Below, one piece after another: positions 4,404 to 31,754 of a stretch of DNA of 37,894 nucleotides (positions are counted from its first letter, which is position 1; every line of letters starts with the position of its first letter). The translations under genes were made by a program, and so were the position numbers. Origin of the DNA: an uncultured Rhodospirillales bacterium (lineage in GTDB: Bacteria > Pseudomonadota > Alphaproteobacteria > Acetobacterales > Acetobacteraceae); NCBI GenBank assembly GCA_903910565.1, contig CAIWAJ010000459.1, positions 1 through 37,894 of the forward strand, in the 5' to 3' direction. The notes below the pieces were generated by a model, which was given only the letters and a program-made list of their open reading frames with translations, was not told where the DNA came from and did no database searches.

Positions 4404-6158
4404 TCAGGCCTTTGCCGGCTTGGCCCGCTTCGCCTGGCTCATGATGTAGGACTGCTGAGCGATGGTCAGCAGGTTGTTCCAGCTCCAGTAGATCACGAGC
4501 CCGGCCGGGAAGCTGCCCATCATGAAGGTGAACAGGATCGGCATGTACTGGAACAGCTTGGCCTGCACCGGATCGGGCGGCGGCGGGTTGAGCCGCTGTT
4601 GGAAATACATGGTGAAGCCCATCAGCACCGGCCAGACGCCGAGATGCAGCATGGAGCCGAACATTGGCAGCGTCGTCGGGTCGAAGGGGATCAGGCCGAA
4701 CAGGTTGAAGATGTTGGTGGGATCAACCGAGGAAAGGTCCCTGATCCAGCCGAAGAACGGCGCGTGGCGCATCTCGATGGTGACGAAGATCACCTTGTAG
4801 AGGCTGAAGAACACGGGGATCTGGATGAAGATGGGCAGGCAACCGGAGGCCGGGTTGACCTTCTCGGTGCGGTAGAGCTCCATCATCTTCTTCTGGAGTT
4901 CCTGCTGGTTGTCCTTGTACTGCTCCCGCAGGATGGTCATCTTCGGGCCAAGTTCCTTCATCTTGGCCATGGAGCGGTAGGACTTGTTGGCCAGCGGGAA
5001 GAACAGGCCCTTGATCAGCGTCGTGAAGATCAGGATCGCCACGCCGAAATTGCCGACCTGGCCGTAGATCCAGTCGATCGCGTAGAAGAAAGGCTTGGTG
5101 AGGAAGTAGAACCAGCCGAAATCCACCGCCTTGTCGAAATTGACGATGCCGTCGACCTTCTCGTAGGTGTCGAGCAGGTGAACTTCCTTGGCACCGGCGA
5201 ATAGCCGGGCGGTGGTGGACACGGTGGCGTCCGCGGCAATCGCGATGGGGTCGACGGCGAGGAAATCGACCTGGTAGCCGCCGGCGCCGCCGGCGACGTA
5301 GCGGAAGGCAAGATCCTGCTTGACGGCTTTATCGGGTATCAGCGCGGTCAGCCAGTACTTGTCGGTGATCCCGGCCCAGCCGCTCACGCCCTTCAGGCCG
5401 AGAGCCAGGCCGGCGGCCTTCTCCCCCTTTTCCTTCACCTTGGCATAGGTCAGATCATCGTCATGCAGCTTGCCGTCGAGCACGCCGAGCATGCCCTCGT
5501 GCAGCACATAGTAGCCGGCGGTCTTGGGCGTGTAGTCGCGGCGGACCCGCGACCAGGGGAACAGCGAGATCGGTTTGCCACTGGCGTTGCGCACGCGCTG
5601 CTCGACGGCAAACATGTAGTTGGCATCGACGGTGAAGACGAGTTCGAACGTCAATCCCGCCTTGTTGTCCCATGAGAGCGTGAGCTTCTGGCCTTGCGCC
5701 AGGTCACCGGTGGAGGACCAAAGTGTGTCCTCATCTGGTACGGCAATGCCGCTGCCCTCGGGCGCGGTCCAGCCAAACTGCACGAAGGTCGGCTCGGCGG
5801 CACCACGGGGTTCCAGAAGGCGGACCTGCGGAGATTTGGGTTCGATCGTATCGCGGTAGTCGCGCAGCACCAGATCATCAAGCCGGGCGCCGAGCAGGCT
5901 GATGCTGCCTTGCAGGCGGGGGGCGCTGAAGGTCACTCGCGGAACTTCGCGGGGCGTTGCAGCGGGGGTGGGGGTGATGGCGTTACCCGGCACGCCTGCG
6001 GCGGTGGCGGGCGCGGCTGGTGCGGCAGTGCCGGCGGCCGGCGCGGTGGCAGCCGTGGGCGCCACCACAGGCTTGGGGGGTGGCGGCATCAGAAACTGGA
6101 AGCCGAGGAGGATCGCGATCGAAATGGCGATCGCGAGGAACAGGCGTTTTTGATCCAT
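4404..6158 (-). CDS. yidC: Membrane protein insertase YidC
   Basis: 584 aa. N-terminal TM segment, a large periplasmic domain, and a C-terminal 60-kDa inner-membrane insertase core (GCLPIFIQIPVFFSLY...). Confidence 0.95.
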   Translation of the reverse strand: MDQKRLFLAIAISIAILLGFQFLMPPPPKPVVAPTAATAPAAGTAAPAAPATAAGVPGNAITPTPAATPREVPRVTFSAPRLQGSISLLGARLDDLVLRDYRDTIEPKSPQVRLLEPRGAAEPTFVQFGWTAPEGSGIAVPDEDTLWSSTGDLAQGQKLTLSWDNKAGLTFELVFTVDANYMFAVEQRVRNASGKPISLFPWSRVRRDYTPKTAGYYVLHEGMLGVLDGKLHDDDLTYAKVKEKGEKAAGLALGLKGVSGWAGITDKYWLTALIPDKAVKQDLAFRYVAGGAGGYQVDFLAVDPIAIAADATVSTTARLFAGAKEVHLLDTYEKVDGIVNFDKAVDFGWFYFLTKPFFYAIDWIYGQVGNFGVAILIFTTLIKGLFFPLANKSYRSMAKMKELGPKMTILREQYKDNQQELQKKMMELYRTEKVNPASGCLPIFIQIPVFFSLYKVIFVTIEMRHAPFFGWIRDLSSVDPTNIFNLFGLIPFDPTTLPMFGSMLHLGVWPVLMGFTMYFQQRLNPPPPDPVQAKLFQYMPILFTFMMGSFPAGLVIYWSWNNLLTIAQQSYIMSQAKRAKPAKA

Positions 6159-6422
6159 CTAGAGTGCCGTCCGTTCCTGCTGGGATGGGGAGAGCGGGGC
6201 CACCGGGTCGTAGCCGCCGGGATGCCAGGGATTGCAGCGCAGAATGCGCCGCGCGGCCATGGCCGCGCCGCGCAGTGCGCCGTGCGTGTGGAGCGCCTCG
6301 ATGGCGTAGTGGCTGCAGCTCGGTTCGAAGCGGCATTGTGCGCCGATCACGCCGCGCAGCGTGAGTTGATAGGCCCGCACAGTACCGGCCAGCACGGTGG
6401 CGGGGATCTCGCTAACCCGCAT
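6159..6422 (-). CDS. yidD: Membrane protein insertion efficiency factor YidD
   Basis: YQLTL...[17 protein letters not shown]...G...[17 protein letters not shown] is the YidD signature. Start chosen at the internal ATG 6422 (MRVSEIP...); the track ORF extends to 6473. The stop abuts the yidC ATG (TAGATG). Confidence 0.8.
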
Positions 6423-7077: not shown

Positions 7078-7779
7078 ATGCGCATCCTCCTCCGTTTCTG
7101 GCCACTCCTGCCGATCATCGCTGTGCTGGCCCTCGGCTATGCTTTCGGGCTGCAGAACGAGCTGAACTGGGCCTCCCTCGCCGCGCATGAGGCGGCACTT
7201 CGCGCCAGCATCGCGGCCAATCCGGCGGCTGCGGCGGTCTGCTTTGTCGCCCTCTATGCCGCGGCGGTCGCGGTGTCCTTTCCCGGTGCGGTGGTGTTGA
7301 CCGTGGCGAGCGGCTTGCTATTCGGGTGGTGGCTCGGGGCGATCCTGACGGTGACCGGGGCGACCACCGGATCCGTATTGATCTTCACCGCCGCACGCAC
7401 CGCCCTCGCCCCGATGCTGGCTGCCCGCGCCGGGCCCTTCATCGAGCGCTTTCGCGGCGGGCTGCAACGCAACGCCTTCTCCTATATCCTGGCAATGCGG
7501 CTGATCCCGGTGATCCCGTTCTGGCTGGTGAATCTTGCACCGGCCTTGCTTGGCGTGCGCCTCGCCCCATTCGCTCTTGCAACCGCCATCGGCATCATTC
7601 CCGCCATCACCGTCTACGCCTCGCTCGGTGCCGGCATCGGCGGCGTGCTCGCGGCCGGCGGGCGGCCGGATCTCGCGGTGATCTTCACGCCGGGCGTGCT
7701 GCTGCCGTTGCTGGGCCTCGCGATGCTGGCGCTGTTGCCGGTCGGTTGGCGGGCATGGAAAGGAGGGATCGCGATATGA
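7078..7779 (+). CDS. TVP38/TMEM64 (DedA-related) family membrane protein
   Basis: 233 aa from ATG 7078 (MRILLRFWPLLPII...). Multi-TM, with the RLIPVIPFWLVNLAPALLGV motif of the SNARE-associated/TVP38 family. Confidence 0.8.
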   Translation: MRILLRFWPLLPIIAVLALGYAFGLQNELNWASLAAHEAALRASIAANPAAAAVCFVALYAAAVAVSFPGAVVLTVASGLLFGWWLGAILTVTGATTGSVLIFTAARTALAPMLAARAGPFIERFRGGLQRNAFSYILAMRLIPVIPFWLVNLAPALLGVRLAPFALATAIGIIPAITVYASLGAGIGGVLAAGGRPDLAVIFTPGVLLPLLGLAMLALLPVGWRAWKGGIAI

Positions 7780-7797
7780 AGCGCGGTGATGCAGGAC

Positions 7798-7927
7798 GAA
7801 AGCGCTTCTTGTTAAAAAAAGAAACTAAAAATTTTCATCCGTTTGCTTCGCCCTATCCCGGGAGAGCGGGATGCCAAACGAATGAAAGTTTTTTCGTTCT
7901 TTTTTTCAAAAAAGAACCGCTTTTTTC
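7798..7927. repeat. AT-rich nested-palindrome element, copy 1 (full)
   Basis: Left arm GAAAGCGCTTCTTGTTAAAAAAAGAAACTAAAAATTTTCATCCGTTTGC. Centre with ATCCCG-GGAGAG-CGGGAT. Right arm GCCAAACGAATGAAAGTTTTTTCGTTCTTTTTTTCAAAAAAGAACCGCTTTTTTC. The arms are reverse complements of each other and of the other copies. Confidence 0.9.
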
Positions 7928-7936
7928 GGCACTCGC

Positions 7937-11059: not shown

Positions 11060-12130
11060 ATGCAATTCGGCATCGCGCTCGCCACTGACGCGGACTCGTG
11101 GAAGGTCGCCGCCCGTGCGGAGGAACTCGGCTTCAGCCACGCATGGTTCTACGACACCCAGATGCTGAGCGCCGATTGCTTCGTCGCCATGGGCGCGGCG
11201 GCGGTGAAGACCAGCCGCATCAGGCTCGGTACCGGCGTCCTGATCCCCTCTAACCGCATCGCCGCGGTCACCGCCAACGCCTTCGCCTCGCTCAACAAGC
11301 TCGCCCCCGGGCGGATCGACTTCGGCGTCGGCACAGGCTTCACCGGCCGGCGGGCCATGGGGCTCGGGGCGATCAAACTGTCGGAGATGGCCGAATATAT
11401 CCGCGTGGTGATGGCGCTGATGCGCGGCGAGATGGTGGAGACCACGATTGAGGGAGAACGGCGTAAAATCCGCTTTCTGAACCCTGAACTAGGCCTGATC
11501 AACACCACCGACCCCGTGGCGCTGCATCTCTCCGCCTACGGGCCGAAGGCGATGGCACTGACGGCGAAGCTCGGCGCCGGCTGGATCAACTTCGTCGGCG
11601 ACGAGGCCGGTGGCGCCAAGGCGATCGCTGGCATGCGCGGCGCGTGGACTGGCGCGGGGCATGACCCTTCTCGCCTCGGGGCGGTGGCCTTCGCGCTCGG
11701 CTGCGTCCTCGCGCCCGGTGAGGCTCTCGACAGCGCCCGCGCCATGGCGCAGGCCGGGCCCCGCGCGGCCGTGCTGCTGCATCGGGCCGCCGACGAAGCG
11801 CTGTCGGGCCTGCCCAACACCTCGCCGATTCCGCCGGAGGTGGCCGACGAGGTCGCCGGCTACGTCGCCATGGCCCGCGGCTTCACGCCGGCCGATGCAC
11901 CGTGGATCGAGAACCATCGCGGCCATCTGATGGTGGTAAAGGAAGAGGAGCGCCGCTTCATCACCCCCGAGCTGATCCGCCGCACCACGTTCACCGGCAC
12001 GCGGGAGGCGCTGGTGGAGCGCGTCGGTCGGCTACGGGATGCGGGGTATACGCAGTTCACGGTGCAACTCACGCCGGGGCAGGAAAGCGCCATAGAGGAT
12101 TGGGCTGGGGTGATGCGGGCTTTCAGGTGA
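11060..12130 (+). CDS. LLM-class (luciferase-like) flavin/F420-dependent oxidoreductase
   Basis: 356 aa. MQFGIAL...ELGFSHAWFYDTQML...RIRLGTGVLIPSNR...GRIDFGVGTG pattern. AAGGAAG SD upstream. Confidence 0.85.
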   Translation: MQFGIALATDADSWKVAARAEELGFSHAWFYDTQMLSADCFVAMGAAAVKTSRIRLGTGVLIPSNRIAAVTANAFASLNKLAPGRIDFGVGTGFTGRRAMGLGAIKLSEMAEYIRVVMALMRGEMVETTIEGERRKIRFLNPELGLINTTDPVALHLSAYGPKAMALTAKLGAGWINFVGDEAGGAKAIAGMRGAWTGAGHDPSRLGAVAFALGCVLAPGEALDSARAMAQAGPRAAVLLHRAADEALSGLPNTSPIPPEVADEVAGYVAMARGFTPADAPWIENHRGHLMVVKEEERRFITPELIRRTTFTGTREALVERVGRLRDAGYTQFTVQLTPGQESAIEDWAGVMRAFR

Positions 12131-12262
12131 AGAAAGCGGTTCTTTTTTGGAAAAAAGAACCAAAAAAATTTTTGTTTGTTTCGCTCAACACTCGCCTGGG
12201 AGAGCGGGCAACAAGCAGTTAGAAGTTTTTTGCTTCTTTTTTCCAAAAAAGAAGCGCTTTCT
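12131..12262. repeat. AT-rich nested-palindrome element, copy 2 (full, best preserved)
   Basis: AGAAAGCG-GTTCTTTTTTGGAAAAAAGAAC-CAAAAAAA... centre ...CGCCTGGGAGAGCGGGCA... GCTTCTTTTTTCCAAAAAAGAAGC-GCTTTCT. It fills the whole spacer between the convergent LLM and Na/Pi transporter genes. Confidence 0.95.
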
Positions 12263-13920
12263 TACTCTTCCACCCGCAACCGGCTCGGCAGCAACCCCCC
12301 GCCACTCTTCAACACCGGATAGGCCGCCGCAGCGACGAGATGCGCGTTGACCGCCTTGAGGTCCCTGAGCACGTCGAGATGCAGCGCGCTGGTTTCCGCC
12401 GAACCGGGCCGACCGCTGCGCAGCAGGTCGAAATGTGCCTGGGTCGCCGCCTCCTCGATGTCGCGGAACACCTCTTTCTCAGCGGCCAGCAGGCGGGCGG
12501 CACGCACATCGTCAGTCATCAGGACGGAGGCGGCTGAGTGGAGGTTGATCACCAGCCGAGCCAGCAGGCCGGTGATCTGTGCCAGGTCCGGCTCCGAGAA
12601 GGACAGGCCGCGCTTCTGCCGCTTCGAGGCGAGGTTCATCAGGTTGCCCTCGACCACATCGCCGGCGAGTTCGATGTTGTGGGCGAAGATCAGCAACTCT
12701 TCGACCCGCTGGTGGTCCGTCTCGGTCATCGCCTCGGCATCGAGCGAGCCGAGGTAGTCCTTGATGGCACGGTTAAGCTTATCGAGAATGTCGTCCATCC
12801 GCTTGGTCTCGGTGATCTGCCGACGGTCACCGGTTTCCAGAGCTGGGCGCACGCCTTGCAGCATCATCTCAAGCACGTCGGCGAGGCGGAGCGTCTCGCG
12901 CACCGCGGCGCCGATCGCCACGGAAGGAACTTCGCGCACTGCGCTTTGCAGATAGACGGGCTGCGACGGGTCGGCCGGGTCGACCCGATTGGGGAACCAC
13001 CGGCGCAGCAAGCCGGCGTAAGGGCCGAGCACAGGCAGGAACAGGGCGGCGAGCACCAGATTGAAGACGGTGTGGAAATCCGCCACCGCGCGGGCGGTGT
13101 CCGGCACCACCTGTACCAGCCAGGGCCCGATCCAGGGCAGGCCAGCCAGCACAACCGCACAGCCAAAGCTGCGCGTCAGCAGATTGCCGAACGGCAGGCG
13201 CTTGGCCGCCGCGTCGCCGCCGGCCACGCCTTCCAGCACCGGGTTGAGCGCGGTCCCGAGATTGGCGCCGAGCACCATCGCGAAGGCGGCATGTGGCGGG
13301 ATGACGCCCTTTGCGGCGAGCGACATGGTCAGCAACACCACCGCAACACTGGAATGAGCGGCCCAGGTGAGGATTGCCGCAAGCAGTACGTCGAGCACCG
13401 GCTCGGTTGAAATGGCACCAAGGAGCAGGCGCAGGCTTGGAACGTCCTCATAGGGGGTGATGAAGTCGAGCAGTTGGTGCAGCGACATCAGCATCAGACC
13501 GAGACCGATGGCGACGCGTCCAAGATCACGGGTGCGGCTGACATCGCCGCGACGGAACATCAGCACGCCGATGAGGAACAGGCTCGGCGCAAGGCCCGAC
13601 ACGTTGAACGACATCGCTTGGACGATCAGCGTGGTGCCGACATTGGCCCCGAGCATTACGGCCAGCCCAGGCACCAGGTCCAGAAGCCCCCCGGCGGCGA
13701 AACCGGTGATCATCAGCCCGGTCGCCGTGCTGCTCTGCAGTACGGCGGTGGCGCCGAGCCCGGCCAGGAAACCACGGACACGGTTGCGTAACGCGCCGGT
13801 CAGTACCCGCCGCAGCTGCGGCCCGAAGGCGCGTTGCACGCCGGTCTGCACCATGCGCACGCCCCACAGCAGCAGGGCGACGGTGCCGGCGAGATCGATC
13901 AGGGTGATAGGGAAGTTCAC
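12262..13920 (-). CDS. Na/Pi cotransporter family protein with C-terminal PhoU-like domain
   Basis: 552 aa from GTG 13920 ((M)NFPITLIDLAGTVALLLWGVRMVQTGVQRAFG, the typical N-terminus). The track ORF extension to 14115 overlaps the upstream gene. Confidence 0.85.
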   Translation of the reverse strand: MNFPITLIDLAGTVALLLWGVRMVQTGVQRAFGPQLRRVLTGALRNRVRGFLAGLGATAVLQSSTATGLMITGFAAGGLLDLVPGLAVMLGANVGTTLIVQAMSFNVSGLAPSLFLIGVLMFRRGDVSRTRDLGRVAIGLGLMLMSLHQLLDFITPYEDVPSLRLLLGAISTEPVLDVLLAAILTWAAHSSVAVVLLTMSLAAKGVIPPHAAFAMVLGANLGTALNPVLEGVAGGDAAAKRLPFGNLLTRSFGCAVVLAGLPWIGPWLVQVVPDTARAVADFHTVFNLVLAALFLPVLGPYAGLLRRWFPNRVDPADPSQPVYLQSAVREVPSVAIGAAVRETLRLADVLEMMLQGVRPALETGDRRQITETKRMDDILDKLNRAIKDYLGSLDAEAMTETDHQRVEELLIFAHNIELAGDVVEGNLMNLASKRQKRGLSFSEPDLAQITGLLARLVINLHSAASVLMTDDVRAARLLAAEKEVFRDIEEAATQAHFDLLRSGRPGSAETSALHLDVLRDLKAVNAHLVAAAAYPVLKSGGGLLPSRLRVEE

Positions 13921-17770: not shown

Positions 17771-17860
17771 ACAGGCAGCATGACGCGGGATTGGTCTGAT
17801 GATAAAGACCGATCTTAGCATGTGATATTGGACCAATTGAAAGATGGTCGGAGAGAGTGA

Positions 17861-17914
17861 GAAGAAAGCGCTCCTTTTTTGAAAAAAAGGAGCAAAAAAC
17901 TTCTATCCTCTTGG
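17861..17914. repeat. AT-rich element, copy 3: solo arm only
   Basis: GAAGAAAGCG-CTCCTTTTTTGAAAAAAAGGAG-CAAAAAACTTCTATCCTCTTGG matches the arm consensus. No partner arm in 17915-17985. Confidence 0.85.
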
Positions 17915-17985
17915 GGTGTACCGCTCCGACCTGTCGGTCAGGTGTACGCCGACGGCGTGCTTCCAGTTTCAACCGACACCAAATC

Positions 17986-18597
17986 TCAATCTACCAACAC
18001 CCCATGCTGCCGCAAGAATCCCAGCAGTGGCAGCAACGGTAAGCCGAGAATCGCGGCATATTCGCCATCCACTGCGTCGAACAACTGAACACCCGGTCCT
18101 TCCAATCGATAAGCCCCGACCGTGTGGGTCACGTGCTCCGTCTCCTCGGAGAGGTAGGCGTCGAGGAATTCCTCGGAAAACGGCCGCATGACCAAGCGCG
18201 GCCGGGCGACATGGTGCCAGATCCGCCGCCCATCCCGCATGCAGAGCACAGCAGTCACCAGGGTGTGCGGCCGTCCGCGCAAAGCCAGGAGTTGCTCACG
18301 CGCACCGGCGACATCCGCGGGTTTATCAAACCACCGATCCCCACATACCAGCAATTGATCGCAGCCGATTACCAACGCTTCCGGGTCGCGCGAGGCGATG
18401 CGAGCCGCCTTCAACTCGGCCAACAGCAAGGCGGCATCATCGGCTGACATGCCATCGGCGCGGGCAGACTGCTTCACAGCAGTCTCGTCAATCGCGGCCG
18501 CTTTAGCCTCGAAACGCAGTCCCGCGCCGATCAATAGGGCACGGCGGGCGGAGGACGCGCTTGCCAGTACCAATCGCGGCTCAGCTGACTGCAACAT
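17986..18597 (-). CDS. maf: Maf-like nucleoside triphosphate pyrophosphatase
   Basis: 203 aa. LVLASASSARRALL...GCDQ...GKP..., the Maf pattern. Its ATG shares one base with the upstream TGA (TGATG). Confidence 0.9.
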   Translation of the reverse strand: MLQSAEPRLVLASASSARRALLIGAGLRFEAKAAAIDETAVKQSARADGMSADDAALLLAELKAARIASRDPEALVIGCDQLLVCGDRWFDKPADVAGAREQLLALRGRPHTLVTAVLCMRDGRRIWHHVARPRLVMRPFSEEFLDAYLSEETEHVTHTVGAYRLEGPGVQLFDAVDGEYAAILGLPLLPLLGFLRQHGVLVD

Positions 18598-19472
18598 CAG
18601 CGTGGCGCCTCAATCACCTTTTGCCGGCGATTATGCCAAGCCTCCATGAGCTGCACCACCGTCGCCGCGGTCTCCTCAATAGACCGGCGAGTGACATCGA
18701 TCACCGGCCAGCCACGCCGCGTGCATAGCCGGCGCACCCACAGCAGCTCGGCCTTCACAGCATCCTGGTCGACATATTCACCACTGTCATGCCGCGGCGC
18801 CGGCGCTTGGTTGCCGCCGATCATGCGCAGCCGATGGCGGCGGATCTCGATCAGCACGTCTGGGTCGATCGACAGACCGATCACCGGGCAATGCGGATTG
18901 AGCAGCACATCCGGCTCACCAAGCGCCGGCACCAGCGGTACATTGGCTGCCTTGATCCCTCGGTTGGCGAGGTAGAAGCAGGTTGGTGTCTTCGAACTGC
19001 GGGAGACGCCGACAAGGATGACATCCGCCTCCTCGATGCCGCCCTGTGCCTGGCCGTCATCATGGGCGAGAACATAGTGGATGGCGTCAATCCGCTTGAA
19101 ATAGTCGGAATCGAGCACATACTGACGGCCGATCCGCGCCGAGGCCTGCTCGCCGAAATGGGCTTGGAATACGCTGAAGACGGGATCCAGTACATGCACG
19201 ACCGATGTGCCAAGGCGCTGGCAGGCCATTTCCAGCTCAGTGCGCAGGCCCTTTTCCATCAAGGTGGACAGTACGGGGCCTGGCTCGGCCTCGATGCCCT
19301 CTATCACCCGGTGCAGCTGGAAGCGCGTCCGGATCAGGCTCCAGCGATGATAAACGATTTTCGATTCCTCGAACTGCGCCACCGCGGCGCGCGCCACCGC
19401 GTTGAGGGTATCGCCGGTGGAATCGGACACCAGATGCAGGTTATGTTGGTTTGATTGATTTTGGTTGGGCAT
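18597..19472 (-). CDS. Pyruvate, phosphate dikinase / PEP synthase regulatory protein (DUF299, RP001-like)
   Basis: 291 aa from internal ATG 19472 ([23 protein letters not shown]...). P-loop-like GVSRSSKT. Confidence 0.85.
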
Positions 19473-19781
19473 GGGGGCTGAGGATAACGGGGATAACCGG
19501 GATTGGCAGCCCCCGCTGCACGGCAAGCGGGCCTTAGCGGGGATGAATGACACATCCGTGATTCCAGAGGGCACGAATCCGGAGGTTCACGCCTCTGCGG
19601 GGACCAAACCCTGGATCGCTGCAACTTCAATGTGCTGTCGCATGCTGTTGCTGTGGATGAAATCGGGGACAAGACTGGCGCAGCCGTGTACCCCGATTTC
19701 CACCGGGCCTACTTACAACAACCACCTCTTAAGGATTCTTTTATCTGGTAGAAGGACGCTGGATGCGGAGCGGATACGAGC
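19473..19781. other. Candidate chromosomal replication origin (oriC) in the PDRP | hemE divergent spacer
   Basis: Matches the synteny of Caulobacter Cori (hemE - ori - RP001/DUF299 - maf). DnaA-box-like 9-mers TGAGGATAA (19479-19487) and TGTGGATGA (19652-19660) each have 1 mismatch to TGTGGATAA. CGGGGATAA (19488-19496) has 2 mismatches. Nine same-orientation GGAT cores, three GANTC sites, and a short AT-rich patch at 19728-19750. Confidence 0.5.
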
Positions 19782-20804
19782 ATGACGAAGACGATCTTGC
19801 GGGTTCTGGCCGGCGAAGCGGTGTGGCCGCCGCCGGTGTGGCTGATGCGCCAGGCCGGGCGGTACCTGCCGGAATATCGCACGTTGCGGAAACAGGCCGG
19901 CGACTTTCTGAATCTTTGCCTCAGCCCCGAACGCGCCGCGGAAATCACGCTGCAACCGCTGCGGCGTTTTGCTATGGACGGCGCCATCCTGTTCAGTGAC
20001 CTACCAATCGTCTCCTGGGCGCTGGGTCAGGACCTGCGCTATGCCGAGGGTGAAGGTCCGGTACTTACGCCGATCCGCGATGCTGCCAGCATCGATCGGC
20101 TGAGCGTAGACCGGGTGGCTGATGCGGTCGCCCCGGTATGGGAGACAGTGCGCCGTGTACGGGCGGAGGTAGGGCAAGCCACCCTGATCGGCTTTTCGGG
20201 CGGCCCATTTACGGTGGCGTGCTACATGGTGGAGGGCCACGGTTCGCGCGAATTCGCCGCCGCCCGTGGCATGGCTTATTCTGAACCTGCACTGTTCGCG
20301 CGGTTGATCGACCGGATCGTAGAGGGAAACCTAGTCTATTTGCGCGGCCAGGCCGATGCTGGAGCCGAAGCGCTCATGCTGTTCGACAGCTGGGCCGGCA
20401 TGTTGCCACCGGAGGAGTTCCGGCGCTGGGTGATCGCGCCGACAGCGCGCATCGCCGCAGCCCTGCGTGAGAGCCACCCACATATCCCACTGATCGGCTT
20501 TCCCCGTCTCGCCGGCATGTTGCTGGGCGAATATGCTGTTGCAACGGGCGTACAAGCCGTAGCGATGGATACTTCCATGGACCCGGCCGCGGCGGCGCGA
20601 CTTGTTCCTAAGCATATCGCCCTGCAAGGCAATCTTGATCCTCTGGCGCTGGTGGCTGGTGGGGAGACGATGTTTTCCGGTGTCAGGCGCATCAATGAGG
20701 CTCTGCGGGGGCGCCCACATATCTTCAATCTTGGTCACGGCATTGTGAAGGAGACGCCGCCCGAGCATGTCGGAGCGTTGGTGGCGGCGATAAGGGGTGG
20801 TTGA
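19782..20804 (+). CDS. hemE: Uroporphyrinogen decarboxylase
   Basis: 340 aa. PVWLMRQAGRYLPEY signature. Confidence 0.95.
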   Translation: MTKTILRVLAGEAVWPPPVWLMRQAGRYLPEYRTLRKQAGDFLNLCLSPERAAEITLQPLRRFAMDGAILFSDLPIVSWALGQDLRYAEGEGPVLTPIRDAASIDRLSVDRVADAVAPVWETVRRVRAEVGQATLIGFSGGPFTVACYMVEGHGSREFAAARGMAYSEPALFARLIDRIVEGNLVYLRGQADAGAEALMLFDSWAGMLPPEEFRRWVIAPTARIAAALRESHPHIPLIGFPRLAGMLLGEYAVATGVQAVAMDTSMDPAAAARLVPKHIALQGNLDPLALVAGGETMFSGVRRINEALRGRPHIFNLGHGIVKETPPEHVGALVAAIRGG

Positions 20805-20835
20805 CGGCGCTCCTGGGGAGGCCATCTTTGCCGTT

Positions 20836-21891
20836 ATGCGCAAACCTAAGATAGCCATCGTCCTGTTTAATCTCGGTGGCCCCGACCGGCCGGAGGCGAT
20901 CAAACCGTTCCTGCTTAATCTTTTCCGTGACCCCGCGATCCTGCGGGTCCCGTTCTTTGTCCGCCCAGTTCTGGCGCGCATCATAGCAGGTGCTAGGGCG
21001 AAGCCGGCGACGGAGAATTATGCCCTGCTGGGTGGCAAATCGCCGTTGCTGGAACTCACTGTCGCGCAGGGTGAGGCTTTGGAAGCCGCTTTGCCTGAAT
21101 TGGAGGCTAAGTGCTTCATTGCGATGCGTTATTGGCACCCATTTAGCGAGGAAACTGTACGCCAAGTGCTTGCGTGGGACCCCGATGAGGTTCTGTTGCT
21201 GCCGCTATACCCGCAATACTCGACAACGACGACAGGAAGTTCCTTGACCGCTTGGCGCGAGGCCGCGGCCAAGGTCGGACTCATGAAGCGCGTTACTTCG
21301 TTGTGCTGCTATCATCACGATACCGGTTATATCTCCGCCATTGCCAGACTTGTTCGCCTAAGTTACGATGCAGCGCTGACGGACATCGGTCGGGGCGGTA
21401 AGCTACGTATTTTGTTCTCCGCTCACGGCCTGCCGGAGGTGATCGTGAACCGCGGTGATCCGTATCAGTATCAGATTGAACAAACGGTCGCCTCTGTTGT
21501 TGACACTCTCTCGATTCCGGATCTTGATGCTGTCGTATGCTATCAGTCTCGTGCTACGCCGCAGAAATGGATTGGGCCGTCGACCGAAGATGAACTTGAG
21601 CGTGCTGCACACGACAAGGTGGGGGTAGTCGTGGTGCCAATTGCATTCGTATCAGAACATTCCGAAACATTAGTGGAGCTGGATGTCGAGTATCGAGAGC
21701 TAGCCGACAAGCTGGGAGTGCCCGGCTATTTCCGTGTTCCAGCGGCGAATTCCGACCCCGCCTTCATCGCGGGACTCGCTGGTCTCGTCAGACAGGCGCG
21801 CGGCCCCGGCTTGTGTACGGTTGGCGGAATTTGCCCAGTGAAACATGGTGATTGCCCGCATCGTCTGGCCGCAATGGATGCTGTCGCATGA
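20836..21891 (+). CDS. hemH: Ferrochelatase
   Basis: 351 aa from ATG 20836 (MRKPKIAIVLFNLGGPD...LPLYPQYS...FSAHGLP...). The track start 20797 (GTG) is an alternative. Confidence 0.9.
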   Translation: MRKPKIAIVLFNLGGPDRPEAIKPFLLNLFRDPAILRVPFFVRPVLARIIAGARAKPATENYALLGGKSPLLELTVAQGEALEAALPELEAKCFIAMRYWHPFSEETVRQVLAWDPDEVLLLPLYPQYSTTTTGSSLTAWREAAAKVGLMKRVTSLCCYHHDTGYISAIARLVRLSYDAALTDIGRGGKLRILFSAHGLPEVIVNRGDPYQYQIEQTVASVVDTLSIPDLDAVVCYQSRATPQKWIGPSTEDELERAAHDKVGVVVVPIAFVSEHSETLVELDVEYRELADKLGVPGYFRVPAANSDPAFIAGLAGLVRQARGPGLCTVGGICPVKHGDCPHRLAAMDAVA

Positions 21892-21905
21892 AGGCAAAGG
21901 AATTT

Positions 21906-22577
21906 ATGAGCGCGCGTACGTCACCGCTGCGTCTGGTGATTTTTGACTGCGATGGTGTCCTTGCGGACAGCGAACCACTGGCGAACCGCGTGTCTGCCGA
22001 AATGATCTCGGAAGAAGGCCTTTCTATCTCGGCGGAGGAGTGCGTCCGCCGATTTGTTGGCCTCAACTTGGAGGCCATGGTTCCGGCGATCGAGGCGGAA
22101 CTCGGTCGATCCCTCAGGCATGATTGGGTGGATTGCCTGACGCATCGATTGATTGAAGCCTTCAGCCGGGAGATGCGTCCCATTCCTGGTGCTATCGAGG
22201 CTTTGCATGCTGTTTCGGCGCTTGGTTTGCCTTGGCGAGTTGCTTCCAACTCGAGCCATGCGGAAATGAATGCAAAATTTTCTGCCATGGGGATTACCGA
22301 TCTCGTCGCTGGCCGCCTGCACTCCTATACCGATGTCGCTGAAGGCAAGCCCGCGCCTGATCTCTTTCTCGCTGCCGCCGCGGCCGAGGGCGTTCCACCG
22401 GCCCAGTGCGTGGTCATCGAGGACAGCGTGACCGGCGCCCGTGCCGCTGCCGCCGCCGGTATGCCTTGCCTCGGGTTTGCTCCCCATGGAGACGACCCCC
22501 GACTGATAGGTGTTGGTGCACGGTTGTTCAACTCGATGTTCGAGCTCCCCGCGCTGATCGCGGCCGCACCGGGATGA
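21906..22577 (+). CDS. HAD-superfamily hydrolase (beta-phosphoglucomutase-like subfamily IA)
   Basis: DCDGVLADSE (motif I), ASNS (II), GKPAPDLF and EDSVTGARAA (III/IV). Start at 21906 (AAGGA upstream) or at 21888 (ATGA overlap with the hemH stop). Confidence 0.75.
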   Translation: MSARTSPLRLVIFDCDGVLADSEPLANRVSAEMISEEGLSISAEECVRRFVGLNLEAMVPAIEAELGRSLRHDWVDCLTHRLIEAFSREMRPIPGAIEALHAVSALGLPWRVASNSSHAEMNAKFSAMGITDLVAGRLHSYTDVAEGKPAPDLFLAAAAAEGVPPAQCVVIEDSVTGARAAAAAGMPCLGFAPHGDDPRLIGVGARLFNSMFELPALIAAAPG

Positions 22578-23026
22578 CGTTCGGGTTTCTCGCGCATATT
22601 TATCTTTGGGTGAAAGCCCTGCACGTCATGAGCGTGATCGCGTGGATGGCGGGTATGTTCTATCTACCGCGTCTCTTCGTTTATCACAGCATGGTCGCTT
22701 CGGGATCTGAGGAGAGCGAACGGTTTAAGGTCATGGAACGCCGTCTGCTGAAACAGATCATCAATCCTGCGATGGTGGTGAGTTGGCTGTTTGGCTTGGT
22801 CCTGGTGCTAACGCCTGGTATTGTCGACTGGTTCAGCCTGTGGCCTTGGATTAAATTGGCTGGCGTTCTCGGCATGAGTGCGTTTCACGGGAAACTGGTC
22901 GTATGGCGGCGCGATTTTATGGAAGACCGCAATCGCCATCCTCATCGCTACTACAGGATAGCTAACGAAGTTCCTACTTTGCTGATGTTTGTTATCGTCA
23001 TCATGGTTATCGTCAGGCCGTTCTGA
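22574..23026 (+). CDS. hemJ: Protoporphyrinogen IX oxidase HemJ (UPF0093/CopD-like)
   Basis: 150 aa from ATG 22574 (ATGA overlap with the HAD stop). YLWVKALHVMSVIAWMAGMFYLPRLFVYH is the characteristic HemJ N-terminus. Confidence 0.8.
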   Translation: MTFGFLAHIYLWVKALHVMSVIAWMAGMFYLPRLFVYHSMVASGSEESERFKVMERRLLKQIINPAMVVSWLFGLVLVLTPGIVDWFSLWPWIKLAGVLGMSAFHGKLVVWRRDFMEDRNRHPHRYYRIANEVPTLLMFVIVIMVIVRPF

Positions 23027-23481
23027 TGTCATACATCATTTGCTTGCCCGATGGCTATGTGATCAATGACGATCCTCAGCGGCTTGATGTCGTGGCAATC
23101 CATGAGTTCCTCAGCACTGAAAGCTACTGGGCCCGCGGCCGCGATCATGCGACGGTGGAGCGGGCACTCGCTCATTCGCTTTGCTTCGGACTTTACGGAC
23201 CCAGTGGCGATCAAGCTGGTTTCGCCAGGCTGGTGACCGATCGAACCACGGCGGCACATCTCTGCGATGTTTACGTGCTGATTGCTCACCGGGGCCGCGG
23301 TCTTGGCAAGGCTCTCATGGCTGCTGTGCTAGGGCATCCCGATGTTCAGACGATCTCGAGATGGTCCCTAAGCACCCAGGATGCGCATGGTTTGTATGCT
23401 GGTTTTGGATTTGGTCCTCACCCGGACCTGCATACGCAGATGTGGCGTACACGGTGGCCTGCTGGCGAGGGTAAGCTCTGA
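23026..23481 (+). CDS. GNAT family N-acetyltransferase
   Basis: 151 aa. Acetyl-CoA motif A HRGRGLGKALMAAVL. The ATG shares one base with the hemJ TGA. Confidence 0.8.
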   Translation: MSYIICLPDGYVINDDPQRLDVVAIHEFLSTESYWARGRDHATVERALAHSLCFGLYGPSGDQAGFARLVTDRTTAAHLCDVYVLIAHRGRGLGKALMAAVLGHPDVQTISRWSLSTQDAHGLYAGFGFGPHPDLHTQMWRTRWPAGEGKL

Positions 23482-23665
23482 TCAGCATGATGGCGGGCTC
23501 GACCGCCTGCGTTTCTGGATACTATGGAGATGCTATTTAGGCTCTGGAAGATCCTATAATCGTTTCGTATATCCGTTTTATTGGCCCGCACGACTAGGGC
23601 ACGGCGTATCGGTGGCAGGCATCTGCAAATTCTGTGGTCACGCACTCTGAAAACGCGCCGTAACG

Positions 23666-24529
23666 TCAATCACGGCTGAGCAGAGCGATCAGTCCGTCGA
23701 GCTGATCAAGGGTTCGATAGCGGATACGGACCGTACCGCCACCACCTTCGAACGTGATATCGACCTTGAGACCCAGCCGCTCAGTGAGTGTGCGCTCGAG
23801 TGCGACCGTATCGCGATCGCGTGCGCGCGCTTGTCTCTCTGGCCCGGATCCACTGCGGCGCGCGGCGAGCGCTTCAGTCTGCCGTACGTTCAGGCCACGG
23901 GAAATGACCGACAAGGCGGCGATTGCAGGATCTGGGTGAGACAATAGGGCACGCGCGTGGCCGGCAGAGAGTGCTCCCTTATGCACAGCGGCCTGAACCG
24001 CGGGGGGCAGGTTCAGTAGGCGCAGCGTATTAGCAACATGGCTGCGGGACTTGCCCACGGCTGTGCCAAGGGCGTCCTGGGTAAGGCCGAATTCGTCGAT
24101 CAGCCGGCGGTAACCCTCGGCTTCTTCGAGTGCATTGAGGTCCTGCCGTTGCAGATTCTCCACCAATGCCGCGGCCATTGCTTCCGCCTCCGACAATGGG
24201 CGTAGGAGCACCGGTATTTCATGCAAACCCGCCCGCTGGGCCGCGCGCCAACGACGCTCGCCGGCGATAATCTGATAATGGCCAGCTTTGTCAGGATGTG
24301 GACGCGCGAGGATAGGCTGCAGAACGCCACGTGCCTGGATGGATTCCGTCAACTCTTGTAGTGCGGTCTCGTCCATAACACCACGTGGCTGGTAAGGACT
24401 TGGTTCGAACAGGTCGATCGCCACGACGGTTGTACTCGCTCCCGTGGGAACGCTTGAAGGGCTGGCGACGTCACCGAGCAACGCGGCAAGGCCGCGGCCG
24501 AGGCGTGGGCTGGCTTCCTTGGCACACAT
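23666..24529 (-). CDS. parB: Chromosome partitioning protein ParB
   Basis: 287 aa from ATG 24529 (TGATG overlap with the parA stop; the track uses TTG 24532). GRGLAALL, ParB box IIAGERRWRAA, HTH region. Confidence 0.9.
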   Translation of the reverse strand: MCAKEASPRLGRGLAALLGDVASPSSVPTGASTTVVAIDLFEPSPYQPRGVMDETALQELTESIQARGVLQPILARPHPDKAGHYQIIAGERRWRAAQRAGLHEIPVLLRPLSEAEAMAAALVENLQRQDLNALEEAEGYRRLIDEFGLTQDALGTAVGKSRSHVANTLRLLNLPPAVQAAVHKGALSAGHARALLSHPDPAIAALSVISRGLNVRQTEALAARRSGSGPERQARARDRDTVALERTLTERLGLKVDITFEGGGGTVRIRYRTLDQLDGLIALLSRD

Positions 24530-25356
24530 CAAACAATACTTCCCGTAGAGCGTTCCCGCCGCAGGACTTCCTGTGCGAGCCGAACATAGGCCTGCGCTCC
24601 GGGGGAGCGGAAGTCGTATAGGATCACGGGTTTCCCATGGCTGGGGGCTTCTGACACACGGATATTTCGCGGAATGACGGTCTCGAACACACGGTCACCA
24701 AAGAATCCGCGCGCGTCGGCGGCAACGAGGTCCGACAAGTTGTTCCTCCGATCGAACATCGTCAGCACGATGCCAAGCAGCCGCAATCCGGGGTTCAGTC
24801 CGCGCTTGACGAGATCGATTGTACGGGTGAGCTGTGTCAGGCCCTCAAGTGCGAAGAATTCGCACTGCAACGGGACCAACACTGCGTCCGCTGCGGCAAG
24901 ACCGTTCAGGGTGAGCAGTCCGAGGCTCGGGGGGCAATCGATAAGGACGATTCCATAGGCGATTGGCCCCTCGAATGCGCGGTCGAGCGCCGCACGCAGG
25001 TGGAATTCACGCCGTTCCTCAGAGACGAGTTCGATTTCGGCCCCGGCAAGATCTGGGTCCGCCGGGATAATCGAGAGACCGGGAACCGCCGTTTTGCGGG
25101 GGAGATCGGTGGCCGTGGGCTCGAGTAACAAGGCGTAGGTGCCATGGGAGCGGTCCCCACGACCAATGCCAAGACCAGTGGAGGCATTCCCTTGTGGATC
25201 GAGATCGATCAGCAGAACCTGCTGTCCCGCTGCAGCGAGCGCAGTCGCCAGGTTGATGGTAGTCGTTGTCTTGCCTACCCCTCCCTTCTGGTTGGCGACG
25301 GCGATGATCAGGGGCCGCTTGCGCTTGCCGCGTTCGGTCTGGTCAGGAGCCTGCAC
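24529..25356 (-). CDS. parA: Chromosome partitioning ATPase ParA (Soj)
   Basis: 275 aa with a GTG start. Deviant Walker A NQKGGVGKTTT. Confidence 0.9.
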   Translation of the reverse strand: MQAPDQTERGKRKRPLIIAVANQKGGVGKTTTTINLATALAAAGQQVLLIDLDPQGNASTGLGIGRGDRSHGTYALLLEPTATDLPRKTAVPGLSIIPADPDLAGAEIELVSEERREFHLRAALDRAFEGPIAYGIVLIDCPPSLGLLTLNGLAAADAVLVPLQCEFFALEGLTQLTRTIDLVKRGLNPGLRLLGIVLTMFDRRNNLSDLVAADARGFFGDRVFETVIPRNIRVSEAPSHGKPVILYDFRSPGAQAYVRLAQEVLRRERSTGSIV

Positions 25357-25951
25357 GGCGGATCTCTCTGATGCGAAGGATGGTTGACTCAGTGTCGATG
25401 GCGCTTGGTATGCGTTCGATCTGCATGTGCCAATGTAGGGCCGCCGCGGTCAATTCGTCGTCCACGCCGCGTCCCTTCGGAAATACACATATACCGTCTG
25501 GGGCGACGAATGGGCTCGCGAGTTCTAGCAGGCGATCGAGCGGGGCGAGGGCTCGCGCGGTGACCACAGGCGCGCGCTCAAGGCGCAGTGTCTCGATCCG
25601 AGCGCAATGCACTCCAGCATCAGCATGTGTCGCGCGGATCGCTTCGCGCAGAAATGCTGCCTTGCGCTGGTCGGACTCGACCAGCTCAAATCGCCAACCC
25701 GTCGCAATCGCCAGCACGATGCCCGGAAACCCTCCCCCGGACCCCAGGTCGATGGCCCGCCCGGCAGTTGGGGGTAGCGCAGCGATCAGTGCCAGGGAGT
25801 CGATGATGTGGCGATCCCAAATATTCGCTTCATCGTGACGCGAGACCAGATTGATGGTGCGGTTCCAGTGTGACAGCAGAGCGCTGAACGTGCGCAGGCG
25901 GATCTCTGTTTCACGTGAAACACGCAAATCTGACGAAATGTGTTGTTTCAC
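25343..25951 (-). CDS. rsmG: 16S rRNA (guanine527-N7)-methyltransferase RsmG (GidB)
   Basis: 202 aa. GTG start inside parS-2. N-terminal ...VSRET... is encoded by parS-1. SAM motif [10 protein letters not shown]. Confidence 0.9.
25907..25922. other. parS: parS centromere site 1 (perfect consensus)
   Basis: TGTTTCACGTGAAACA is an exact 16-bp palindromic parS consensus. It lies within rsmG codons 11-15. Confidence 0.9.
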
Positions 25952-25959
25952 GTGAAACT
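25944..25959. other. parS: parS centromere site 2 (15/16 match)
   Basis: TGTTTCACGTGAAACT. Its centre carries the mnmG TGA stop and the rsmG GTG start (GTGA overlap). Confidence 0.85.
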
Positions 25960-27822
25960 ATCAGCTCCGGTCGAGTGACGCCGGGTATGTCCCATCAGGA
26001 TAGTCAAAGCCGCGGGCGTCATGCCTTGAATCCGGGCCGCCGCACCGATCGACGTAGGCTGAATCAACATTAGCTTCTCCCGCAATTCGGACGAGAGGCT
26101 CCCTATCGCAGAGAAATCCAAACCAGGGTCCAAACCCAGCCCCTCCTGCCGGCGAAAAGCGGCGATGTCGATCTCCTGACGCTTAAGATACCCGGCATAC
26201 AGCGCGTCGCTCTCAAGAATTGCCCGCAGGCGAGACGGAATCTCGGTTAGCCACGGAGCAACCGCGGCGATCAACGCCTCATCGAACTCCGGAAGTGCCA
26301 AGACATCGAATACCGAGCGTGCCCGGCCATCCGCCCGAACGCTAATGCCTATTCGCCGCAGTTGTTCAGGTGAAAACCCGGAGTTGGCACATCGCTCGCG
26401 CGCAACATTGAGAACAGCACAATCAGCACGGTGCCTGTCAGTGCGCTGAGCTCCCACGCAACCCCAGGCCTCACCGATAGACGTGAGGCGAATATCCGCA
26501 TTGTCCGCCCGCAGGCTGAGCCGGTATTCCGCACGAGAGGTGAACATCCGGTATGGTTCAGACACCCCCTGCGTGGTGAGGTCATCAATCAGCACGCCAA
26601 TGTATGCTTGCGACCGATCTAGGGAAACAGCATCAAGACCGCCACACCGCCGTGCCGCATTGATGCCCGCCATGACGCCCTGGGCCGCCGCTTCTTCATA
26701 CCCCGTGGTCCCATTTATCTGCCCCGCAAGAAACAAACCCGGGAGCCCCTTCAATTCAAGCCCGATGCTCAGAGCCCGCGGGTCAACATAGTCGTATTCG
26801 ATCGCGTATCCCGGCCGGATCATCCGCACATGCTCGAGGCCTGGCATGGTTTCCAGCAGAAGTTGCTGAACCTCACTCGGCAGGCTGGTGGAAATTCCAT
26901 TCGGATAGATCGTGTCGTCATCCAGCCCCTCGGGCTCGAGGAAAACCTGGTGCCGCTCTCGCTCGGCAAATCGCACCACCTTGTCCTCGATCGACGGACA
27001 GTAGCGTGGCCCGCGACCCGCAATCTGCCCGCCATAGACCGCCGAACGCTCAAGATTCGCACGAATAACGGCATGAGTTGCGGGGGTCGTTGACGTCACA
27101 CCACATGCGATCTGACGTGTCGTAATCGCCTCGGTCAACAAACTGAATGGCTCCGGCACCTTGTCGCCCCAGTCCTGATCGAGTCCTGACCAGTCGATAC
27201 TCCGCGCGTCCAGCCGCGGTGGGGTCCCGGTCTTCAGCCGGCCCAACGGCAAGCCCAAGGCCTCCAGCCGCAGCGCCAACCGAACCGAAGGCGCCTCACC
27301 GGCCCGGCCCGCTTCGGTGCGCTCGTGGCCTATGTGGATTACTCCGCGTAGGAAGGTGCCGGCCGTCAATACCGCAGCCCCGCAGGCCAACCGCCGCCCA
27401 TCGCGGCCAATCACCGCTGTGAGGCGCCCCTCGCGATTCAATTCGAGATCCTCGACGGCATCTTCGATGATCGTCAGCCCCGTCTGCGCTGCCAGCAGGT
27501 CCTGCATCGCTTGGCGATACAATTTCCGGTCCGCCTGAGCGCGCGGGCCGCGCACCGCCGGGCCTTTGCTGCGATTGAGCATCTTGAAATGGATACCGGC
27601 CCGATCAGCGGCAATACCCATCAATCCATCGAGCGCGTCGATCTCGCGCACCAGATGCCCCTTGCCGATGCCGCCAATGGCTGGATTACAGGACATCTCG
27701 CCAATTGAGGCACGCCGATGTGTTACGAGCGCCGTGCGTGCACCCATGCGTGCCGCCGCCGCCGCCGCCTCGCACCCCGCGTGGCCGCCGCCGATCACCA
27801 CCACATCGAAACTCATGTCCAT
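25948..27822 (-). CDS. mnmG: tRNA uridine 5-carboxymethylaminomethyl modification enzyme MnmG (GidA)
   Basis: 624 aa. [19 protein letters not shown] motif. GGAGG 13 nt upstream of ATG 27822. Confidence 0.95.
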
Positions 27823-27843
27823 GCCGTACTCGTCGCCTCCGCC

Positions 27844-31619: not shown

Positions 31620-31744
31620 GCAGTTCTTTTTTGGAAAAAAGAACCAAAAAACTTCTATCCGTTTGCACCGAGCAGCCCTGGTCAATTCCCAGCCAAACGA
31701 ACCAAAAGGTTTTCTTCCTTTTTCAAAAAGACGCGCTGCCTTCT
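31615..31744. repeat. AT-rich nested-palindrome element, copy 4 (full, right arm decayed)
   Basis: AGTAAGCA-GTTCTTTTTTGGAAAAAAGAAC-CAAAAAACTTCTATCCGTTTGC ... GCCAAACGAACCAAAAGGTTTTCTTCCTTTTTCAAAAAGACGCGCTGCCTTCT. The left terminus contains the yyaL-like TAA stop. Confidence 0.9.
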
Positions 31745-31754
31745 CCCCCCCCCC
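31745..31754. repeat. Homopolymeric C10 tract
   Basis: Ten consecutive C directly after copy 4. It lies 2 nt upstream of a TTGACA hexamer and 73 nt upstream of the ogt GTG. Confidence 0.9.

Follow-up and report, generated by a model that had tools for sequence, protein, structure and literature searches.

Why does a G+C-rich bacterial chromosome carry the same AT-rich palindrome at the ends of several of its genes, how do the copies get there, and could they be of use to the genes that they adjoin? In this work we have asked these questions of a 37,894-nt stretch of DNA, called the window below, from contig CAIWAJ010000459.1 (assembly GCA_903910565.1) of an uncultured Rhodospirillales bacterium of the family Acetobacteraceae. 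It is an origin-proximal housekeeping stretch of ~65% G+C with yidC, ribF, hemE, hemH, parAB, rsmG, mnmG and mnmE among its genes. The original prediction, made from the letters of the window alone, had described in it a dispersed, non-coding nested palindrome of the kind known from miniature inverted-repeat transposable elements (MITEs) and repetitive extragenic palindromic (REP) sequences. The repeat is real, and our results support this description. We consider it probable that the sites in the window represent one family of small, non-coding, non-autonomous repeats, which spread by copy-and-paste and are terminator-like at gene ends.

The repeat and its two unlike arms

Repeat detection in the window returned four full copies of ~130 nt and one further recognisable arm, nine arms in all, at every site where a copy had been claimed, and a profile built from the window arms found each of them with E = 1e-10 to 1e-16. 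The 26-nt core, GCGSTTCTTTTTTGRAAAAAAGAASC, had 6 matches in the window with up to 3 mismatches, compared with 0 in 100 dinucleotide-preserving shuffles. The arms of the full copies are ~50 nt long and 75-93% complementary, and the copies contain no open reading frame (ORF). The contrast in composition that had been pointed out is equally clear, since G+C is 47-50% where the copies lie and 65-72% around them. The further copies that were anticipated elsewhere also exist: a genome scan by exact core match, which covered one genome per species and gives lower-bound counts, found the core in at least 113 stretches and at least 42 assemblies.

The unit begins with a purine-rich outer tail (AAGS/GGCAA), followed by an AT-rich 10-bp hairpin arm, CAAAAAACTTTTG, a G+C-rich centre that varies among subfamilies, CAAAAGTTTTTTG, the second hairpin arm, which is of the opposite type, and a pyrimidine-rich tail. 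The conserved part of an arm reads (R)AAG(S)AAGCG, then the 10-bp stem S-TTC-T5-6 / A5-6-GAA-S' and then CAAAAAACTTTTG; its T6/A6 runs are invariant across genera. Inward of CAAAAAACTTTTG the conservation is specific to subfamilies, and outward there is a variable AAGS/GGCAA run without a sharp terminus. How alike are the two arms? Two main types were recognised, a G-type (GGTTC...GAACC) and a C-type (GCTTC...GAAGC, with its relatives), and 115 of the 134 elements with both arms typed (86%) have one arm of each, as do 4/4 full copies in the window. The same 4-nt variant occurs in both arms of only 14/141 elements, compared with 51.8 +/- 5.2 expected under random pairing. In the extended hairpin the difference between the types leaves one mismatched pair at the foot of every AT run. 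The centre can be asymmetric as well, since in the subfamily that carries the motif CTGTCGCG this motif adjoins the C-type arm in 34/39 cases. Because of its heterotypic arms and asymmetric centre motif, the element is not a true palindrome and has a left and a right end.

Compensatory changes between arms had been proposed for the inner hairpin, which has 10 bp and a stability of -8 (DNA) to -13 (RNA) kcal/mol. Pairing is indeed kept. In 80 diverse arms 87.6% of the cells scored were paired, and double-change cells numbered 55, compared with 15.7 +/- 3.0 in shuffles (0/500 reached 55) and 8-25 in slid controls, although such counts are inflated by relatedness among the copies. The 4-nt stem base is perfectly complementary in 277/309 arms, and the rarer variants CTGC/GCAG, GTCC/GGAC, CCGC/GCGG, CTAC/GTAG and CTCC/GGAG represent true double changes. 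The difference between G..C and C..G arms, on the other hand, stems mainly from the fixed two-type design, which accounts for much of the apparent compensatory change and does not represent repeated independent compensation. The G/C and TCC/GGA arm variants themselves, like the mini-hairpins of the centre, are exactly as they had been read (Table 1).

Three of the full copies fold better than their shuffled counterparts. The minimum free energy (MFE) of the RNA is -48.8 kcal/mol for copy 1 (z -4.4 vs shuffles) and -64.1 for copy 2 (z -8.1), and copy 5, whose MFE structure consists of three hairpins, has a z of -6.2 to -6.7; copies 2 and 5 also beat shuffles when folded as DNA. Copy 4 does no better than shuffles (z -0.5), which we attribute to the decay of its right arm; this arm (4R) and the left arm of copy 1 (1L) are the degenerate ones.

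Table 1. Copies of the repeat in the window, with the genes on either side
Feature	Position	Strand	Composition	Neighbours and context
Copy 1, full	7796-7927		C-type arm 7796-7846 (degenerate), centre 7847-7872 with ATCCCG/CGGGAT mini-hairpin, G-type arm 7873-7927	VTT-domain gene, stop 7777-7779; Pyr_redox gene, ATG 7937; co-directional genes
Copy 2, full	12130-12263		G-type arm 12130-12183, centre 12184-12211, C-type arm 12212-12263	Luciferase-like gene, TGA 12128-12130; Na/Pi cotransporter gene, TTA (minus-strand TAA) 12262-12264; convergent
Copy 3, solo arm	17862-17914	+	C-type variant CTCC..GGAG	Between maf and Pyridox_ox_2 gene, both minus strand
Segment around copy 3	17839-17963		~125 nt	No counterpart in syntenic contig L196
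Copy 4, full	31614-31745		Left arm 31614-31666; right arm 31692-31745 (decayed)	
Copy 5, full	33321-33453		C-type arm 33321-33372, centre with TCCCT/AGGGA mini-hairpin, G-type arm 33400-33453	Quinone-oxidoreductase-like gene, TAA 33316-33318; DUF3576 gene, CTA (minus-strand TAG) 33456-33458; convergent

Every copy had been said to lie within about 20 nt of a stop codon. This statement holds for the full copies and fails for the solo arm, for which the nearest stop, that of maf at 17986, is 72 nt away. Copy 2 occupies the entire gap separating the stop codons of the luciferase-like and Na/Pi cotransporter genes, copy 5 likewise fills the whole gap between its convergent stops, and the TAA of a DUF255/thioredoxin-like gene (31617-31619) falls within the outer tail of the left arm of copy 4. 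The segment around the solo arm is probably a full-size element whose second arm has become unrecognisable, as a comparison with contig L196 suggests: GGACCAATT and CAGTTTCA enclose 125 nt in the window and 5 nt in L196 (a non-coding alignment made by eye). In a minus-strand transcript the hairpin of this arm would be followed by CGCUUUCUUCUC.

Some other features of the window were noted. Immediately behind the decayed right arm of copy 4 stand ten C residues in a row (31746-31755), which may be a slippage-prone tract or an assembly artefact. The G+C content drops to 0.52-0.60 at 19600-27000, compared with 0.65-0.72 elsewhere, and G+C at third codon positions (GC3) to 0.66-0.70, compared with 0.8-0.9, despite the core housekeeping genes found there. 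The part from 17986 to 29127 carries maf, a DUF299 kinase/PPPase gene, hemE, hemH, parB, parA, rsmG, mnmG and mnmE. It includes a 207-nt spacer of ~53% G+C (19575-19781) between the divergent DUF299 gene and hemE, which we take to be the place of replication origins of the Caulobacter type in alphaproteobacteria. The orthologous spacer in the related locus L095 contains one single arm (6174-6225).

Spread, copying and position at gene ends

An iterated arm profile, run over ~0.9 Mb of sampled loci and the window, found 441 arms, which form 169 tail-out inverted pairs with a median length of ~130 nt and 103 singles. The core matches listed were all labelled Acetobacteraceae, Rhodospirillales or unclassified (alpha)proteobacterial metagenome-assembled genomes, with Acidiphilium sp. 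PA and Acidocella in addition. As far as sampled, the family is confined to the Acetobacteraceae and their prophages, on the Acidiphilium/Acidocella/Pseudoroseomonas side and in uncultured lineages from freshwater, peat and lichens. The core is present in 19 viral-contig stretches of IMG/VR; one of these contigs (L212) represents the tail/baseplate module of a P2-like phage, and four full elements stand in it between tail genes that run in the same direction. In a plasmid collection, two plasmids of Pseudoroseomonas cervicalis had one copy each. In a collection of cultured phages, a 37-nt arm match of 97% was seen at 5908-5944 of MG945182.1 (L298), an UNVERIFIED 'Microviridae sp.' record from cattle blood, where it is intergenic and directly follows a long GC hairpin. 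This record may come from a microvirus of an acetobacteraceal host or be a reagent-derived sequence.

Density differs greatly between genomes. In three rich genomes there are 0.4-0.5 elements per kb and 35-45% of the called gene 3' ends are occupied; the index copy of each locus was removed for this count, and since loci were chosen for containing a copy, the high values are biased upward. The window has 0.13 per kb, with 6/33 gene ends occupied. OZ240673.1, the richest genome, has elements on either side of very short genes, among them rpmG, which encodes ribosomal protein L33 (L034:2984-3223 and neighbours), and seven elements lie in one 8-kb stretch (L016). At the other extreme, arms were found in only 6/80 loci around orthologues of the ADH-like gene of the window. 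These loci, found by a metagenome scan, belong to distant relatives in which synteny is lost, and an arm at the equivalent stop was seen only in L119. The closest relatives examined (87-89% and 80% identity in one protein) have no arms in ~25 kb.

Does the element move as a whole? Copies at unrelated loci of OZ240673.1 are 92-95% identical over their full length, centre included, and stand in both orientations. The empty sites that had been asked for were seen both in syntenic relatives and in related prophages. In the 12-kb syntenic contig L196 the sites of copies 1, 2 and 3 are all empty. At site 1 the two genes overlap by 4 nt (ATGA) in L196, L194, L195 and L065, where no element is present, and in the window ATGA is present on both sides of copy 1. 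Site 2 reads TGA-TCGTGC-CTA in L196, a gap of 6 nt, and both stop codons are kept in the window. In related prophages, elements were present at 30/97 loci, and the same junction was empty in many others. An empty junction there consists of a stop, 12-16 nt including the ribosome-binding site, and ATG; a filled one consists of a stop, the element, ~7 nt, a ribosome-binding site and ATG. We propose that the element would propagate as a whole ~130-nt unit, in either orientation, into the few bases behind stop codons.

At copy 1, 18 nt to the left and 9 nt to the right (7780-7797 and 7928-7936), up to the duplicated ATGA, also have no counterpart in the relatives. The inserted segment of 157 nt is therefore longer than the recognisable element, and the true ends of the unit may lie beyond the conserved arms. 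At one prophage junction (L214:523-657 compared with L207:8338-8471) the asymmetric inner centre looks, by eye, flipped relative to the flanking genes, which could be due to recombination between the inverted arms or to independent insertion. An automated comparison of orthologous prophage pairs gave 0 flipped, 22 same and 47 ambiguous.

The position of the element relative to genes was determined with crude gene calls, based on long ORFs and the GC3 signature. From the outer end of a full element to the stop that it faces the median distance is 2 nt (quartiles -2 to 13), and to a facing start it is ~22-58 nt. In the sampled loci, 50/201 convergent junctions (25%) are occupied, compared with 78/643 tandem (12%) and 10/173 divergent ones (6%). 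TAA makes up 46% of the stops abutting an element and 15% of those of other genes (chi-square 85, p 3e-19). Is this excess the trace of a TA target, as for IS630/Tc1-like elements? The excess of TAA and TAG had raised this possibility, and we rejected it: TA was found at 75/185 of the ends that do not face a stop, against 77 and 59 in controls. Element ends that do not face a gene have no excess of T or TA. We conclude that the T does not belong to the element and that TA is not its target. It appears that the stop is made at the junction, either from the leading purines of the element or through single mutations in its AAG-rich tail.

Role, movement and the competing explanations

What could such an element do at the end of a gene? 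Read as RNA from either strand, it gives a tail, an AU hairpin (-10.6 to -13 kcal/mol), A6 and then CUUUU-GC hairpin-AAAAG, followed by U6-GG-UUC-U6/7, the rest of the second AU hairpin and GCUUGCUU/CGCUUUCUU or CUUUCUU. With the CUUUU/AAAAG extension the centre reaches -20 to -26 kcal/mol in the window copies, and the bare centres of 166 elements have a median MFE of -17, compared with -12.9 when shuffled. A simple terminator-pattern scan flags the outer AU hairpins only, among them the outward-facing hairpins followed by CTTTCTT that had been singled out earlier. After insertion, the transcript of the upstream gene would include the element in its 3' end. The centre hairpin with its U-tract might then act as a weak-to-moderate bidirectional terminator, with the outer AU hairpin as a weaker back-up, and/or a 3' hairpin might shield the end of the upstream mRNA. 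If so, it would be understandable that promoter regions lose their copies, whereas at gene ends copies are tolerated or kept. Judging from this anatomy, the position at gene ends and the excess at convergent junctions, the most likely effect would be that transcription stops in part of the cases and/or that the 3' end of the upstream mRNA is protected, as known for REP elements. Among the roles originally suggested, that of a putative bidirectional terminator or 3'-end stabiliser fits the anatomy and position best.

Several observations weigh against the picture of a copy-and-paste repeat with terminator-like ends. On the side of function, copies lie between genes of prophage late operons, which argues against efficient termination, and copy 1 separates two genes that overlap in relatives. 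Moreover, the U-tract behind the outer hairpin is poor, relatives have no element at the same junctions, and there is no orientation bias with respect to transcription, either for single arms (16 v 22) or for full elements (31 v 22). While DNA replicates, quasi-palindromes can be corrected by template switching, which can yield double changes without any selection at the RNA level, and the covariation in the hairpin could stem from such correction of a DNA palindrome. On the side of movement, the outer ends are fuzzy, and the target-site duplications that had been looked forward to did not appear at fixed offsets or at free offsets (165 elements; longest shared substring 4.58 v 4.58 in controls). 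With neither a duplication nor a TA target, transposition as the mechanism has no direct mark. Finally, no transposase, REP-associated tyrosine transposase (RAYT) or parent insertion sequence (IS) was found in the window, in the 113 element loci or between paired arms. The window had been described as free of transposases, and a Pfam scan of 30 of its ORFs, a subset, agrees. The ten genes that are flanked by arms are ordinary ones, coding for a PfkB kinase, cyanase, a MerR protein, glyoxalase and others.

Could the repeat be, in the first place, a functional module kept by selection at each site, a bidirectional intrinsic terminator or mRNA 3'-end stabiliser for which mobility is only the means of delivery? 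We regard this as possible but not likely. The element abuts stops and is enriched between convergent genes; its succession of A-tract, GC hairpin and U-tract is symmetrical, and the scan flags its outward hairpins with CTTTCTT. It occupies junctions that are terminator-less in relatives, such as the 6-nt gap of L196, and in the UNVERIFIED microvirus record a GC hairpin is followed by one arm in an intergenic gap. Close relatives nevertheless manage without the element at the same junctions, and copies in prophage tail operons and in a formerly overlapping gene pair are hard to reconcile with it, as is the lack of an orientation preference in full elements and single arms. Two of the window arms, 1L and 4R, are decaying. 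In orthologous prophages the flanks are ~93% identical, the arms 82-85% and the centres 64%, so that the repeat is not conserved above the neighbouring coding DNA, although this comparison is rough and its registration noisy.

Missing duplications, a kept hairpin and an organisation in doublets and singletons together point towards a single-strand hairpin mechanism like that of REPINs, the REP doublets that form hairpins. According to the strict form of this explanation, which also covers bacterial interspersed mosaic elements (BIMEs), each arm is a REP unit that forms a hairpin as single-stranded DNA and is moved by a single-copy RAYT (Y1 HUH, PF01797) encoded elsewhere. We hold this form to be unlikely, in spite of much that agrees with it: inverted doublets occur beside singletons, the two unit types alternate, target duplications are missing, double changes preserve the hairpin, the location is extragenic at 3' ends with divergent junctions avoided, and related bacteria have RAYT genes. 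A position matrix of 270 anchored arms shows no GTAG/CGTC tag; the conserved 5' part is AAG(S)AAGC. CGTC repeats were reported to be missing from the Acetobacteraceae (Di Nocera et al. 2013, PMC3733652). Compared with typical REPs, the arms are longer (~45-60 conserved nt) and much richer in A+T. A phmmer search with approximate IS200, IS608 and YafM queries found no RAYT in the 113 element loci and only a truncated one in the element-free locus L159. Three RAYT-bearing contigs (L198-L200, 55 kb), found by protein search from the L159 fragment, have no arms. The remnant itself (L159:2740-3018) matches YafM of E. coli with E 6.5e-23. It comes directly behind the ADH-like orthologue and is flanked by GC-rich GGCGGAA...TTCCGCC palindromes, a different and ordinary REP system in a relative that lacks the AT-rich arms.

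It is rather improbable, in our opinion, that the repeat is a classical MITE, that is, an internally deleted IS with terminal inverted repeats (TIRs) of ~50 nt, moved in trans by the DDE transposase of a full-length IS which would be expected to share the ends AAGCAAGCGGTTCTTTTTTG / AAGCAAGCGGTTC. Long TIRs, a length of ~130 nt, no coding capacity, subfamilies, insertion polymorphism and the presence in prophages and two plasmids would all suit a MITE. The ATGA that flanks copy 1, where relatives have one ATGA, resembles a target duplication of at least 4 bp and is the sole hint of this kind. Against it stand the 165 elements and the fixed offsets without any duplication signal, TA that is not enriched, the lack of a transposase between or beside arms, and outer ends that consist of variable short tandem units instead of a sharp terminus.

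A more far-reaching proposal, and one to which we give little credence, joins movement and function in a 'portable gene end'. According to it, a self-spreading, duplication-free element homes to the ends of ORFs, possibly via a single-stranded DNA hairpin or through a link to transcription or translation termination. There it would supply a stop context, with TAA derived from its leading purines, as well as a terminator that works both ways. At a third or more of genes in some Acetobacteraceae it would have taken the place of the usual end signals, and its enzyme would be neither a known RAYT nor a DDE transposase.

Still less do we favour a site that acts as DNA, where AT-rich palindromes at the ends of transcription units, in a chromosome of 65-70% G+C, would bind or load nucleoid proteins or topoisomerases (IHF, gyrase as at the BIMEs of E. 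coli, or proteins of the GapR/MucR type). The sharp AT island (47-50% v 65-72% G+C) and the T6/A6 runs that do not vary across genera would agree with such a site, and 3' ends are where positive supercoils would accumulate, to judge from BIME-gyrase and GapR biology. Strict complementarity at variable stem positions, though, suits a hairpin and not a dimer that binds duplex DNA, and an essential architectural role is hard to square with the patchy occurrence of the element in close relatives. Lastly, an integron attC-like recombination site, such as the Vibrio cholerae repeat (VCR), or a small-RNA gene is hardly credible: an imperfect palindrome of ~130 nt directly behind stops and a very stable RNA fold recall them, but we rejected both on context, given core housekeeping genes in conserved synteny, convergent contexts, both orientations, no one-directional cassette array, no integrase and no RYYYAAC/GTTRRRY ends for the former, and no promoter-like site or Rfam family for the latter, so that nothing supports the small-RNA role once suggested.

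Place among known repeats and significance

In its organisation the family stands closest to the REP/BIME/REPIN repeats of enterobacteria and pseudomonads, and to MITEs. With the REPs and BIMEs of E. coli and Salmonella (units Y and Z) and the REPIN-RAYT systems of Pseudomonas it shares high-copy extragenic imperfect palindromes in inverted doublets and singletons, two types that alternate within the doublet, a hairpin that is kept and no target duplication. It also shares their location in transcribed 3' regions and between operon genes, and their rarity between divergent genes. Our left and right ends recall the unlike Y and Z units of E. coli BIMEs. The differences are no less clear. REPs are GC-rich, but this family has AT-rich arms, with T6/A6 stems, in a genome rich in G+C; the arm is conserved over ~45-60 nt instead of 20-40, with no GTAG/CGTC tag and no linked RAYT; and the G+C-rich centre with its A6/U6 tracts and the variable AAGS outer tail set this family apart.

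Correia elements (CREE), ERIC/IRU, RUP, Nezha and the palindromic elements of Coxiella and Rickettsia are likewise non-coding, ~100-150 nt long and equipped with TIRs and long hairpins. Like Correia elements and other MITEs, our family has hundreds of dispersed copies that are polymorphic between relatives and presumably co-transcribed with their neighbours. Terminator activity has been reported for Correia elements; these have a TA duplication and sharp 26-bp ends, neither of which was found here. The Rickettsia palindromic elements insert in frame into genes, whereas this family abuts stops. In contrast to MITEs, we know of no parent IS for it. Bidirectional intrinsic terminators resemble the element in layout, since either strand gives the same succession of A-tract, GC hairpin and U-tract, and they too lie between convergent genes. 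Ordinary terminators, however, do not form a 130-nt unit with 45-nt flanks conserved across genera, are not copied between loci and have no extra AU hairpins. The intergenic mosaic elements of Rhizobium (RIME) are also alphaproteobacterial palindromes of ~100 nt, a likeness of architecture only. VCR/attC sites, too, are imperfect palindromes of ~125 nt right behind stops; VCRs differ in forming one-directional cassette arrays beside an integrase.

The original prediction could not place the repeat in a named family, and Rfam agrees with this: the window had no match at the gathering score and only sub-threshold matches to microRNA-precursor hairpin models. We also found no description of it in the searchable literature on MITE, REP, RAYT and terminator repeats of these taxa, the coverage of which is incomplete. 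Since it lacks one defining feature of each of these two kinds (the tag of REPs and the duplication of MITEs), has no match in Rfam and no description in this literature, we regard it as a new family of a known kind, apparently undescribed so far. No new principle is involved, as gene ends with small palindromic repeats have been on record since the 1980s. What is unusual is the combination of AT-rich arms in a GC-rich host, a terminator-like core, the rule of one arm of each type, strict abutment on stops, very high local density and presence in prophages.

If confirmed, it would be a repeat typical of a whole bacterial family, including acidophiles, lineages from lichens and freshwater, and opportunists such as Pseudoroseomonas. 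It could serve as a marker for typing and for the binning of metagenomic contigs. It is also a likely cause of assembly breaks, and it may lead to annotation errors at gene ends, since the junction creates stops and C-termini. The copies form a naturally occurring collection of short terminator-like modules, readable both ways, that could suit alphaproteobacterial hosts rich in G+C. The pairing of unlike arm types, the lack of a duplication and strict abutment on stops are clean features with which REP-like movement and retention could be tested, and the presence in prophages offers a route by which the family may spread horizontally.

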